Assembly (NCBI GenBank): GCA_937969345.1
Contig: CALBVK010000246.1
Location: 463 to 64,462 of the forward strand
DNA from: an uncultured Acidimicrobiales bacterium
GTDB lineage: Bacteria; Actinomycetota; Acidimicrobiia; Acidimicrobiales; SHLQ01
DNA length: 64,000 nucleotides
Reading direction: 5' to 3'
The notes under the pieces are model-generated. The model was not told where the DNA came from, ran no database searches, and worked only from the letters and a program-made list of their open reading frames with translations. The position numbers and the translations under genes are program-made. Below, piece by piece: positions 5,975 to 11,357 of the stretch (positions are counted from its first letter, which is position 1; each line of letters starts with the position of its first letter).

Positions 5975-6469
5975 ATGGGAGATCGATACGACAGCCTTCA
6001 GCCCGCCAGCCTCATTGCGTCCATGACGTCGATGCCACGCCGGTGGAAGGACGGAATGCGGGTCAATCCGCCCAAGAACATCGATGACTACTTCACCGTC
6101 GATGGCGAGCAGGGTTCGCCAGCCGAACACGTCGGCGCAGCTATTGCGCAGTTGTCGACGCTCAGCGACGCTATTCGCACCACGAGCTACAACGTCCCAG
6201 AACCGCTAGCGAGCACTGTCGTTGCCGCGGCCTCAAACAGCGGCTCGGGTCCGTGGCCAGATTCTGCTTCTGCGGGCCTAGCCGAGCTGACACGCCTGTT
6301 CGAAACGCTGACAGGCCAGCTTCAACAGCTCAACCCGCGGGACTGGAACAAGTCCGCTGATGCTGGTTCGACGATGCTGACCGTTTTGGCGCTCGCTCAA
6401 GGCGCGAGTCGGGTCGCCGCCGATCGGCTGGCGATCGTCGAGCGCACGGTTCGTACGCTGGCCGACTAG
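5975..6469 (+). CDS. Hypothetical protein
   Basis: 164-aa ORF filling the gap between flanking genes, with GC-rich third positions. No motif recognised. Confidence 0.45.
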   Translation: MGDRYDSLQPASLIASMTSMPRRWKDGMRVNPPKNIDDYFTVDGEQGSPAEHVGAAIAQLSTLSDAIRTTSYNVPEPLASTVVAAASNSGSGPWPDSASAGLAELTRLFETLTGQLQQLNPRDWNKSADAGSTMLTVLALAQGASRVAADRLAIVERTVRTLAD

Positions 6470-6473
6470 TCGG

Positions 6474-7004
6474 CTACTCGGCAGGTTCGAGTGCAGCCCA
6501 GTCTTCCGGGTTGTCCTCGACGAGGATCGTGATGACCTCGCCGTCGACACCGTCGACCATGGCAAACCCGCGGCTCTTCGGCGGCGACTCATTCGAGTAC
6601 AGGAGAATGCGCCACGTCGGACGGCTGCGAAGTCCGCGCCATGCCATCTGCGCAGACGCGTGTCCGACCGGAAAGCCCACGGCCTTGGTGGCTTCGACAA
6701 GCGCGTCTTGTTCGTCGACGGCAAGGTTCCATCCGCCCTGGATGTGGTAAAGCCCAACCACGATGAGTCCGACTGCGGCGAGGGCAAGCCCGCCGTTCAT
6801 CAATGGCGAAGTATCGGCGCGTCCAAGAAACCAAAGCACGAGGAGCGCCCCACCAATCAACAGGTACAAGACACCGGGAATTCGGCGCTTGCTGTTGTTC
6901 GGGAAGAGGTACGGCCCAACGAAGTCCGCAGCGTTCAGGTCGTCTGGGAGTTCATCGACGTATTCGTCGTCATCAACCATTGGATCGACATCTTCGGTAG
7001 CCAC
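6474..7004 (-). CDS. Hypothetical membrane protein (acidic N-terminus, two TM helices)
   Basis: 176-aa ORF with hydrophobic segments IPGVLYLLIGGALLVLWFL and GGLALAAVGLIVVGLY. No family recognised. Confidence 0.5.
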   Translation of the reverse strand: MATEDVDPMVDDDEYVDELPDDLNAADFVGPYLFPNNSKRRIPGVLYLLIGGALLVLWFLGRADTSPLMNGGLALAAVGLIVVGLYHIQGGWNLAVDEQDALVEATKAVGFPVGHASAQMAWRGLRSRPTWRILLYSNESPPKSRGFAMVDGVDGEVITILVEDNPEDWAALEPAE

Positions 7005-7081: not shown

Positions 7082-7627
7082 CTATTGGGCGATCAGACCT
7101 TCGACATCGGCGCTCAACGAGCCGTAACCACTCGTGCGCCACGTACCGTCGTCGTTGATGAACACGTACGTGCTCTGGCGGGTAACCCCAAAACGGTCCC
7201 AGATGTCATCAGCATTGTCGAGGTGTCGGAATCCCTCTACACCGGTCTCCTCGATGAACTCTTGCATCGCTGCGGAGTCGGCGAGTCCCGGCACGCCAAT
7301 AAACGTGACCTCGTCGCCAAACTGTTCCTGGACCCCTACGACCGTAGGAGCTTCACGGCGTCAAAACGGTCACCAGGGCGCCCAGAACCAGAGCACGACA
7401 TCTTCACCTTGCAGCGTGGCCAGATCGACCGTTGTCCCGTCGAGCGTTGCAAACTCTCCCGAGAGCGTTTCCTCGGCAGGTACAGCGGCTGTGTCATCCG
7501 CGGCAGCGGTATCGCTCGCGGTCGTCGTTCCGCCGCAGGCGGATGCGACGAAGCCCATGACGAGTGCGACTGCCAACAAGCGTCGAAACAGCGGCCCCGA
7601 ACCGGTTGAGCGTTTCGTCGACTGCAT
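7082..7627 (-). CDS. TlpA/ResA-family thioredoxin-fold thiol:disulfide oxidoreductase lipoprotein with TGA codons at both positions of the CxxC motif (candidate U-x-x-U selenoprotein; alternatively a pseudogene)
   Basis: Track ORFs 7370..7777 and 7082..7294 are in the same frame. They are separated only by TGA at 7370-7372 and TGA at 7361-7363. Read through, the frame gives ...DVVLWFWAPW-TGA-PF-TGA-RREAPTVVGVQEQFGDEVTFIGVPGLADSAAMQEFIEETGV...STYVFINDDGTW.... The likely start is ATG 7627 (MQSTKRSTGSGPLFRRLLAVALVMGFVASAC, a lipoprotein-type signal), which avoids overlap with the HIT gene. Confidence 0.6.
7332..7351 (-). promoter_or_regulatory. SECIS-like hairpin downstream of the two in-frame TGA codons
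   Basis: The mRNA sense is GCUCCUAC-GGUC-GUAGGGGU: an 8-bp stem (two G-U pairs) with a GGUC apical loop. The loop starts 17 nt after the second UGA and 26 nt after the first. As I recall, the E. coli fdhF SECIS presents a GGUC apical loop about 18 nt after its UGA. Confidence 0.45.
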
Positions 7628-7700
7628 AGGACCACAATACGGCGCGCTGAATCGATCGAATGGCACTCCCGCCAATTCTAACGAGTCACTTACCGTCTGT

Positions 7701-8270
7701 TCATTTCGTTGGCCAGGCCGCCCGAAGCCGCTTCCACGAATCACCGAGACTCTCGGGGAGCACCCGGGCCTCAGCAATGCTCGTCATGAAGTTCGTGTCG
7801 CCGCTCCAGCGGGGCAGGACGTGCACATGTATGTGATCCGGCACGCCGGCCCCGGACGCTCGTCCCAGGTTCATACCCATGTTCACCCCATCGGGTTGGT
7901 ACTCGACTTTGACCGCTTCGATCCCCATACGCACACCAGCGAACAGCTCGATGTAGGTGTCCTCGTCCAAGTCTTCGACGTTGACGGCCGCCTTCTTGGG
8001 CAGCACCATCAGATGTCCTGATGTGTACGGGTAGGCGTTGAGCAACGCAAAGCAATGCTCGCCACGCCACAACACATAGGTCACCGAGTCGTCGAGGCCC
8101 GACTGCTCGATCCCCTCGAACAGCGTCAATCCCTCGACATGTCCCTTCGACCGCTCATCGTCGTCGGCCAGAATGTAGGGAATTCGCCAACCCGACCACA
8201 GACGCGGCATCTGGTCACCGCCGGCGAGCGTGTTGTCGAGCGGTGAGTCGCCGACGTTAGGACTTGGCAT
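7701..8270 (-). CDS. HIT-family nucleotide hydrolase/phosphorylase (Rv2613c-like)
   Basis: Histidine-triad motif GAGVPDHIHVHVLPRW. It lies immediately downstream of thrS, as in mycobacteria. Confidence 0.85.
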   Translation of the reverse strand: MPSPNVGDSPLDNTLAGGDQMPRLWSGWRIPYILADDDERSKGHVEGLTLFEGIEQSGLDDSVTYVLWRGEHCFALLNAYPYTSGHLMVLPKKAAVNVEDLDEDTYIELFAGVRMGIEAVKVEYQPDGVNMGMNLGRASGAGVPDHIHVHVLPRWSGDTNFMTSIAEARVLPESLGDSWKRLRAAWPTK

Positions 8271-10319: not shown

Positions 10320-11357
10320 ATGAAGCTCAGGACCCGATCGCTAGCGGTTGCTTCGGCGACCATAATGGCCTCCACGCTGCTCGCCGCCTCGCCGGCGGCC
10401 GCGCAGGAGACATGTGGCGGCCAAGCGGCAACGATCGTCTCAGACGACGCCGTGATTCGTGGAACCGAAGGCGTCGACGTCATCGTTGCTGGCGACGGCA
10501 ACAACCGAATCGAAGCCCTAGGCGGCGACGACTTCATCTGCTCACGGGCTGGCGATGACGAGATCATCGCTGGCGACGGCGACGACTTCATCCGTGCTGG
10601 TGGCGGTGCAGACGTCGTGTTCGGCGGTGCCGGCGACGACAGCATGTTCGGCGGCTGGGGCGGAGATACCCTCAACGGCGGCGACGGAATCGACCGCATC
10701 TGGGGCGAACAAAACCAGGACATCCTCAATGGCGGAGGCGGCGACGACATCATTCGTGGCGGCTTCGCGATCGACATCATGAACGGCGGCGCAGGAAACG
10801 ATCTCATGGTCGCCGGCTTTGGCCGTGACGAGGTCTTCGGAGGCCTCGGAGACGACCGCATGTACGGCCAGGGCTACGCCGACGTCATGGACGGCGGCTT
10901 CGGCAACGACTGGATCCACGGCGGCCCCGGCCCCGACGACATCCTCGGTGGCCGCGGTAGCGACACGATCATCGGCGGACCCGACGACGACTTCTTGCTC
11001 GGCGATGACGGCAAACAATACGACGAAGGTGGCACCACGATCACCCACCCCGGCGAGGCCGACATCATCAACGGCGGTCCGGGGAACGACTACCTCGGCG
11101 GCGAGGGTGGCAACGACATCTTGTTGGGCAACCAAGGACTCGACGTCGTCGACGGCTTCCACGGAAACGATCGGGTCGAGGGCAACCTCGCAAACGACCT
11201 ACTCAGCGGAGGCGCAGGCAACGACGTGCTCATCGGTGGCAATGGTGCCGACAAGTGCTGGCCAGAGTTCGTCGTCGTAAGCGCAGGCGTCGTCCCGCCG
11301 ATCAACGCCAACGACAGCACCCGAGAGTGTGAACAGATCAACCAGATCCTGAACTGA
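10320..11357 (+). CDS. Secreted calcium-binding protein with RTX-like (hemolysin-type GGxGxD) repeats
   Basis: Sec-type signal MKLRTRSLAVASATIMASTLLAASPAAAQ. It is followed by more than 20 degenerate nonapeptide repeats (GGDDFI, GGAGDDSMFGGWGGDTLNGGDGIDRIWG, GGPGNDYLGGEGGNDILLG ...). Confidence 0.8.
   Translation: MKLRTRSLAVASATIMASTLLAASPAAAQETCGGQAATIVSDDAVIRGTEGVDVIVAGDGNNRIEALGGDDFICSRAGDDEIIAGDGDDFIRAGGGADVVFGGAGDDSMFGGWGGDTLNGGDGIDRIWGEQNQDILNGGGGDDIIRGGFAIDIMNGGAGNDLMVAGFGRDEVFGGLGDDRMYGQGYADVMDGGFGNDWIHGGPGPDDILGGRGSDTIIGGPDDDFLLGDDGKQYDEGGTTITHPGEADIINGGPGNDYLGGEGGNDILLGNQGLDVVDGFHGNDRVEGNLANDLLSGGAGNDVLIGGNGADKCWPEFVVVSAGVVPPINANDSTRECEQINQILN

Follow-up and report, generated by a model that had tools for sequence, protein, structure and literature searches.

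Can a bacterial gene with a stop codon in place of both of its catalytic cysteines still encode a complete redox enzyme? The question is raised by a locus in a 64,000-nucleotide stretch of contig CALBVK010000246.1, from an uncultured Acidimicrobiales bacterium; we call this whole stretch the window and count positions from its first nucleotide. On the minus strand, between 7627 and 7082, lies the frame of a predicted exported thioredoxin-fold protein in which TGA stands at each of the two cysteine codons of the CxxC active site. We consider it very likely that this is an intact Acidimicrobiales gene, and that its product is a lipid-anchored, extracytoplasmic thiol-disulfide oxidoreductase of the DsbE/DsbF type whose redox centre reads W-U-P-F-U, where U is selenocysteine. 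A first-pass annotation, made by a model from the letters of the window, had put forward a U-x-x-U selenoprotein here. The frame, the fold, the export signal, the conservation of the TGAs and a candidate selenocysteine insertion sequence (SECIS) all stand behind that proposal, and the insertion of selenocysteine itself we infer.

The frame and its predicted fold

The frame 7627->7082 has 182 codons, that is, 181 residues from the ATG at 7627-7625 followed by a terminal TAG at 7084-7082, and we annotate the whole (7082..7627, minus strand) as a predicted complete UxxU selenoprotein coding sequence. Its only internal stops are the TGA at 7372-7370 (codon 86), at the N-terminal Cys of CxxC, and the TGA at 7363-7361 (codon 89), at the C-terminal Cys; both are predicted to be read as selenocysteine, and we refer to them in the RNA as UGA1 and UGA2. 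The frame translates as MQSTKRSTGSGPLFRRLLAVALVMGFVASAC...VVLWFWAPW*PF*RREAPTVVGVQEQFGDEVTFIGV...LIAQ*, with the active-site stretch ...VVLWFWAPW-TGA-CCG-TTT-TGA-RREAPTVV... The G+C content at third codon positions (GC3) is 0.68 on either side of the TGAs.

With Cys written at the two TGA positions, the protein scores above the Pfam cut-offs for Redoxin (55 bits, cut-off 26.6), AhpC-TSA (PF00578; 45.1 bits, cut-off 26) and Thioredoxin (29.9 bits, cut-off 23.5). The catalytic domain, a predicted thioredoxin fold of the Redoxin or DsbE-DsbF-like kind, occupies 7085..7459 (minus), with the Redoxin match at residues 59-170. The nearest solved structures are Mycobacterium tuberculosis DsbF (3IOS, E=2.4e-25) and DsbE/MPT53 (1LU4, E=4.9e-24). 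Both TGAs align with the CxxC cysteines of these two proteins and of 77 database homologues, and the motif block of MPT53 reads WFWTPWCPFCNAEAP, where CPFC has the same middle residues as the UPFU of the window. Judged by these similarities, the protein is a TlpA/ResA-superfamily thioredoxin fold, most like the actinobacterial DsbE/DsbF. The first-pass annotation had described a TlpA/ResA-like fold interrupted only at the two redox cysteines, and the frame, the profile matches and the alignment to the two M. tuberculosis proteins agree with it on both counts.

The N terminus has the features of a lipoprotein signal peptide (residues 1-31; 7535..7627, minus): K5/R6, the hydrophobic core LLAVALVMGFV and the lipobox VASA-C31, together matching a regular expression of the PROSITE PS51257 type. 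Between the Cys that would be lipidated and the catalytic domain lies a low-complexity tether rich in Ala, Thr, Asp and Glu (7460..7534, minus). This export signal, also seen in the first pass, is shared by most of the family that we describe below: a lipobox is present at 14 of the 17 UxxU loci scanned (the window and 13 others), and the three loci without one are a member of the USTU clade, a locus at a contig edge and L127. Among the relatives that have a lipobox, the lipobox Cys is separated from the active-site Trp by 46-178 residues, with a low-complexity region between them.

Conservation of the TGA pair and a candidate SECIS

How often do these two TGAs occur together in nature? The Cys-substituted query was searched against 5.8 billion proteins. 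The search returned 77 ordinary CxxC homologues, at most 56 % identical and mainly from Actinomycetota, and five short proteins with dissimilar N-termini that all stop exactly at ...VVLWFWAPW. In the DNA of those five, TGA-CCN-TTT-TGA follows, and then an open frame of 92-93 codons with a family-typical end. A metagenome scan with the pattern TTYTGGGCNCCNTGGTGANNNNNNTGA, its two middle codons left free, gave 56 stretches. Among these, 23 are family members with an intact frame (22 within the retrieved sequence) and one is the thioredoxin L135 discussed below; the remaining stretches are chance matches without an open reading frame (ORF). A protein-query scan of genome contigs found only Cys homologues, with 32-50 % identity in the best segment. 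In all, at least 17 distinct and diverged relatives from independent metagenomes have TGG-TGA-NNN-NNN-TGA followed by an intact downstream frame of 92-94 codons, well beyond what chance would give. The middle residues of the motif vary (UPFU, UPVU, UPHU, UPGU and USTU), and both TGAs are constant.

The region 3' of the second TGA shows how these genes have been maintained. It contains no stop and no frameshift in the 17 distinct sequences, with a mean pN (nonsynonymous differences per site) of 0.30, a saturated mean pS (synonymous differences per site) of 0.61 and a median dN/dS of 0.32. The downstream frame is, by these substitution patterns, under purifying selection. Neighbour-joining places the 17 UxxU sequences in a single clade, with 0 of the 77 Cys forms inside it. 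Aligning orthologs, a check that the first-pass annotation had suggested, therefore gives TGA in both columns throughout the clade and Cys in the 77 homologues outside it. Near relatives of the window organism, 5-11 % diverged in the gene and from independent samples and runs, have the same two TGAs. One further idea, that the gene evolves fast, was dropped: the window and L147 are 90.5 % identical in the catalytic domain and 90.6 % over the whole region.

If the two UGAs are read as selenocysteine, a bacterial SECIS (bSECIS) would be expected in the coding region just after them. A SECIS-like hairpin, GCUCCUAC-GGUC-GUAGGGGU, lies at 7332..7351 (minus) with its GGUC loop at 7340-7343, and we examined it by covariation, RNAalifold and comparison with a consensus model. 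It has the 4-nt GGUC loop, a 4-bp upper stem and 2-3 more pairs beyond a 1x1 mismatch. The base of the core stem (7350) is 10 nt downstream of UGA2 and 19 nt downstream of UGA1; the corresponding distances to the start of the loop are 17 and 26 nt in 17/17 sequences. In an ungapped alignment of the 17 distinct sequences, 86.8 % of the alignment cells in the hairpin are paired, and the covariation score is 0.208, against 0.096 ± 0.019 for shuffles (0/500 reach 0.208); sliding the 3' partners gives 0.125 at most. The most telling pair, 42:51, links two synonymous sites, the last base of a Pro codon and the last base of a Val codon: 11 sequences have C:G there, 6 have U:A and none has lost the pairing, and the sequences with U:A are interspersed among those with C:G in the tree. 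A second covarying pair changes from A:U to G:C, accompanied by Thr-to-Ala and Val-to-Ala. RNAalifold predicted the same hairpin unprompted.

Is the hairpin simply a by-product of the peptide that this region encodes? In 84 Cys-homologue genes from equally GC-rich actinobacteria, the same register forms 0-5 of the 7 pairs (mode 3), with GGTC in 10/84 and a mean of -4.9 kcal/mol, whereas the UxxU genes form 6-7 of 7, with GGUC in 17/17 and a mean of -8.4 kcal/mol. Because the register fails in the Cys homologues, the hairpin belongs to the TGA-bearing clade and not to the shared peptide. The bSECIS consensus consists of an apical loop of 3-9 nt, an upper stem of 4-16 bp, a G in the first two loop positions, a UGA-to-loop distance of 16-37 nt and an energy of -7.5 kcal/mol or lower (PMC13188914). 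Loop, stem, loop G and spacing are within these limits for both UGAs in 17/17 sequences, and the window hairpin has -10.4 kcal/mol. Since 17 and 26 nt both lie inside 16-37 nt, one element could reach both UGAs. The bacterial SECIS prediction suggested in the first pass has thus turned up a covarying hairpin at an allowed distance from each.

Neither RNAalifold nor single-sequence folds revealed a second conserved structure for UGA1 alone. An extended lower stem, in which the CCG-UUU codons pair with a downstream Tyr/Phe-Gly pair of codons, was also considered and rejected; it appears only in several single-sequence folds, is lost where the codons change (L110, L114, L123 and L138) and has no support from RNAalifold.

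Competing explanations

Could the locus be a pseudogene, a former CxxC redoxin killed by two nonsense mutations? A change from TGC or TGT to TGA needs only one third-position substitution, and public gene calls do show two fragments: NCBI and ENA records split the gene into two unnamed products, an N-terminal one of 85 amino acids (7373-7627) and a C-terminal one of 61 or 70 amino acids (7082-7372) that begins at an internal GTG. The same split is found in all relatives, while an exact search for the window's own 85-residue fragment matched no record. However, both TGAs have been kept in at least 17 lineages with saturated synonymous sites, no other lesion and a dN/dS of about 0.3 downstream, and the TGA forms are monophyletic, have no Cys form among them and share a clade-specific RNA structure after the TGAs. 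Nor are the relatives copies of one recent sequence, as pN between them reaches 0.36. Decay is effectively refuted, and we give it very little credence; the first-pass annotation, which had thought random decay unlikely, was on firm ground. Errors of sequencing or assembly, or a reassignment of TGA across the whole lineage (genetic code 4 or 25), have nothing more in their favour than the mere presence of in-frame TGAs. Against an artefact, the TGA pair is seen in assemblies from ENA, NCBI, JGI and Logan that derive from different samples and runs. Against reassignment, 19/47 GC3-supported window ORFs, the HIT gene next door among them, end in TGA, which matches the first-pass observation that TGA is a genuine stop elsewhere here; both readings are refuted, and the chance that either accounts for the locus is close to nil. 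Altogether, because recurrence, selection, the single clade, independent assemblies and the use of TGA as a stop point the same way, we regard pseudogene, sequencing error and reassigned code as excluded.

A subtler alternative accepts the gene as intact and questions the amino acid. One or both UGAs might be read through as something other than selenocysteine (near-cognate Trp or Cys, or Cys via the selenocysteine machinery), or termination might dominate, with an 85-residue lipoprotein as the main product and the full-length protein as a minor one. UGA is the leakiest stop codon, and the points set out in the next paragraph on machinery and on double insertion favour such an outcome too. On the other side, the stops fall exactly on the two redox cysteines, the classic signature of a Cys/Sec pair, and the SECIS-like hairpin covaries at synonymous sites and is missing in the Cys homologues, whereas a SelB-independent leak would not select a hairpin. 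TGC/TGT or TGG is one mutation away, yet the clade contains no member with such a change. We therefore judge non-selenocysteine decoding or predominant termination to be improbable.

Several points weigh against selenocysteine insertion at this gene and against the enzyme role that we propose for it. Neither the 64-kb window nor about 456 kb of related DNA yielded tRNA-Sec, selA, selB or selD in searches that used ARAGORN and Rfam for tRNA-Sec and, across the 456 kb, signature motifs for SelD, SelA and SelB. The window also revealed no second selenoprotein gene, and the related contigs were scanned too; a GC3-filtered scan for in-frame TGAs, and another for TGA with a GGUC hairpin after it, returned only antisense or non-coding frames. 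The 20-nt hairpin taken alone reaches -7.5 kcal/mol or lower in 11/17 sequences (range -6.5 to -14.6), though the published program may fold a longer stretch. SelB-dependent decoding in Escherichia coli is sensitive to the spacing between UGA and SECIS, so service of two UGAs 9 nt apart by one hairpin is not self-evident, and two consecutive SelB-dependent events may be inefficient, as general knowledge of E. coli leads one to expect. Finally, the catalytic direction, oxidase or reductase, is a hypothesis drawn from analogy and chemistry.

Which organism is this, and what suggests that it decodes UGA as selenocysteine at all? The ThrRS encoded nearby shares 83-85 % identity with proteins named 'MAG: Acidimicrobiales bacterium' (MAG, metagenome-assembled genome), and the G+C content of the window is 62 %. 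The selenocysteine trait is patchy across Actinobacteria (PMC5029168). Actinomarinales, another order of class Acidimicrobiia, have selA, selB, selC and selD in all complete genomes. For the window organism, the inference comes from the gene itself, by way of its Cys/TGA pairs, the clade-wide conservation and the SECIS. A separate observation concerns a ThrRS (P0117) that is 88 % identical to that of the window and labelled 'MAG: Verrucomicrobiales bacterium' in NCBI; similar matches are labelled Acidimicrobiales, and the contig is probably mis-binned in a public MAG.

Gene context, related proteins and proposed function

The local gene order is thrS, HIT, the UxxU gene, two ORFs lacking any Pfam match, a pgsA-like gene for a CDP-alcohol phosphatidyltransferase and a gene for a GT4 glycosyltransferase, and the same order is found in L081 and L147. 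A promoter-like site, TGAACA-17 nt-TAGAAT (7675..7703, minus), lies 48 nt 5' of the ATG, where the upstream HIT gene ends; it is a consensus match only, with one such site found against 0.3 expected by chance. The two ORFs between the UxxU gene and the pgsA-like gene, 6474-7004 (minus) and 5975-6469 (plus), have good GC3. Their position is kept in L081 and L147, and they are the most diverged parts of the region, at 83-88 % nucleotide identity against 90.6 %.

The contexts of the other family members differ entirely and include gyrA-gyrB, TauE, peptidase M48, methylmalonyl-CoA mutase and DUF222/HNH genes. No CcdA, DsbD, DsbB or VKOR gene adjoins any member examined, there is no conserved partner neighbour, and the gene appears to stand alone. 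Some types of neighbour do recur. DUF222/HNH endonuclease genes adjoin the UxxU gene in two lineages (L102:184-1512 and L137:6641-7894), and luciferase-like monooxygenase genes are near it in two others (L082:3111-4340 and L123:1152-2207). Otherwise the neighbourhood shows no conservation, suggesting that the gene moves or that its surroundings are often rearranged. Genes for RTX calcium-binding repeat proteins (HemolysinCabind) lie a few kb or less from the UxxU gene in two lineages that share no synteny otherwise, at 10320-11357 (plus; nine repeats) in the window and at L083:332-3385, L084:1488-4541 and L085:184-3165. Their proximity could be coincidence or could reflect a shared set of exported proteins.

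Two further sets of sequences with paired TGAs came up in the scans. The first is a single sequence, L135:509-826 (plus), on a metagenome contig with 44 % GC. It encodes a bona fide thioredoxin (TIGR01068, 101.9 bits, cut-off 96.8) in which TGA replaces both cysteines of WCGPC, giving W-U-G-P-U, and the frame then continues intact; its downstream fold is no better than shuffles (z = -0.16). For selenoprotein thioredoxins, a 2026 catalogue has only UxxC, and CxxU was reported by GOS in a thioredoxin-like family. The second is the USTU clade, a side clade of the UxxU lipoprotein family from organisms of 67-71 % GC: L104 (minus, motif at 2521), L120:1163-1189 and L146:1173-1199. These read W-U-S-T-U, are without the GGUC hairpin and have two different downstream hairpins. 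One, GGGGGG-AGGC-CCCCCC, starts 1 nt after UGA2 with its loop about 16-17 nt from UGA1, and the other, UCGCGC-AGUUG-GCGCGA, has its loop 26 nt from UGA2. The USTU clade, represented by three near-identical sequences only, may have one SECIS per UGA. In L120, another TGA interrupts the frame some 46 codons past the second one, following ...DSFPH, where L104 reads VNDADERLF; it may be a third recoded codon, result from a frameshift or assembly error, or mark a decaying copy.

How does the family compare with known systems? No curated NCBIfam model reaches its cut-off for the window protein. Two candidate identities were set aside because their NCBIfam scores are below the cut-offs: ResA/CcsX (NF002854; 52.2 bits, cut-off 170), for which there are also no cytochrome-maturation genes among the neighbours, and SelL or a SelL-related redox protein (NF040769; 17 bits, E=0.0036, cut-off 120). 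The closest characterized proteins are Mt-DsbF (Rv1677, 3IOS) and Mt-DsbE/MPT53 (Rv2878c, 1LU4) of M. tuberculosis. Like the window protein, they are actinobacterial, exported and built from a single thioredoxin-like domain, and they have in common with it the block WFW(A/T)PW-C-x-x-C-x-x-EAP (U for C in the window). Both are oxidants in vitro and fold hirudin (PMC3853704). In contrast to the window gene, they have Cys at both positions and no SECIS. The nearest Cys-form database homologues are 45-56 % identical to the window protein. The gene context also differs from that of Mt-DsbE/DsbF, with thrS-HIT in the window and no DsbD-type gene nearby, and the predicted diselenide would have a far lower redox potential than the Mt-DsbE/DsbF disulfide.

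Bacterial UxxU thioredoxin-fold selenoproteins are already known as a kind. SelL, a thioredoxin-fold protein whose UxxU motif forms a diselenide, occurs in fish, invertebrates and marine bacteria (PMC2397514). It differs from the window protein in being Prx-like and not a DsbE/DsbF-type lipoprotein. In bacterial SelL, Shchedrina et al. 2007 reportedly described one in-frame SECIS for both UGAs. UxxU sequences also occur in the GOS 'Prx-like 2' family, described as distantly SelP-like (PMC2398784), and catalogues list a 'Prx-like thiol:disulfide oxidoreductase' defined by PF00578 and UxxC/UxxU with 1-2 Sec (PMC9312934, PMC13188914). With 45.1 bits to PF00578 and the motif UPFU, the window protein fits that entry by domain and motif, and we set it beside the catalogued family by description only. 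The example accession of the entry is WP_010940744.1, which we take to be a Geobacter protein. In the part of the GOS sequence supplement that was searched, the WFWAPW-U-P-F-U block was not found.

The hairpin, too, has a well-known counterpart. Like the SECIS of E. coli fdhF, it is short, lies within the coding region and has a GGUC-containing apical loop on an interrupted stem. The G-U of the window loop is about 22-23 nt from the U of UGA2, corresponding to G23/U24 in fdhF, and the GGUC loop and its distance to UGA2 are much like those of the fdhF mini-SECIS. The fdhF element differs in having a bulged U in the stem where the window has the 1x1 mismatch. Unlike fdhF, the window hairpin, for which SelB binding is predicted, apparently serves two UGAs, with UGA1 9 nt farther upstream.

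The first-pass annotation had called a bacterial U-x-x-U centre unusual, and this was overstated, as such proteins were reported in 2007-2008 (PMC2397514, PMC2398784) and are in the catalogues (PMC9312934, PMC13188914). The surprise is limited because bacterial UxxU redoxins with a single SECIS have already been published. What is new here is the particular clade, an Acidimicrobiales DsbE/DsbF-type lipoprotein with UxxU fixed throughout and a well-supported single SECIS.

How might such a protein be made, and what might it do? SelB carrying Sec-tRNA(Sec) would bind the single hairpin and insert selenocysteine at both UGAs, with UGA2 at a near-canonical distance from the loop (17 nt) and UGA1 9 nt farther (26 nt). 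The full-length protein would leave the cytoplasm by the Sec translocon, receive its lipid on Cys31 and sit, on its flexible tether, at the outer face of the membrane. There, and with lower confidence, the two selenocysteines may cycle between diselenol and diselenide, exchanging with both the thiols and the disulfides of exported proteins. For a UxxU peptide diselenide, E°' is about -381 mV, compared with -180 mV for the disulfide (PMC10096412), yet diselenides are efficient in oxidative protein folding (Beld et al. 2007, 2008, as cited in PMC10096412). A reductase fed from the cytoplasm would work uphill. The most likely mode would be a kinetically fast oxidase or exchanger that rests as the diselenide in oxic water, and not a reductase fed by DsbD/CcdA; we favour it because there is no linked membrane partner, because Mt-DsbE and Mt-DsbF behave as oxidants and because diselenides catalyse oxidative folding.

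It is attractive to go further and see here an uncatalogued selenoprotein family: a monoderm lineage of Actinobacteria would have converted its DsbE/DsbF envelope enzyme entirely to a diselenide (UxxU) centre and retained it across a radiation of Acidimicrobiales, giving a partner-independent oxidative-folding catalyst recycled by O2, with one SECIS loading SelB twice for UGAs 9 nt apart. We hold this broader proposal to be doubtful as a whole. If it is true, the family would be a natural case of one SECIS loading SelB twice, and the USTU clade seemingly uses two hairpins instead.

For the gene itself, the reading as an intact UxxU selenoprotein has wider consequences. Because no curated model reaches its cut-off, the whole clade is invisible to routine annotation. 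The gene would place a two-selenocysteine redox centre outside the membrane of aquatic Acidimicrobiales, and it is indirect evidence that Acidimicrobiales, like Actinomarinales, decode UGA as selenocysteine. Within about 40 nt, the family offers a compact natural system for studying how one bacterial SECIS serves two close UGAs, and it would provide a natural test of the role of a diselenide in a Dsb-type enzyme.

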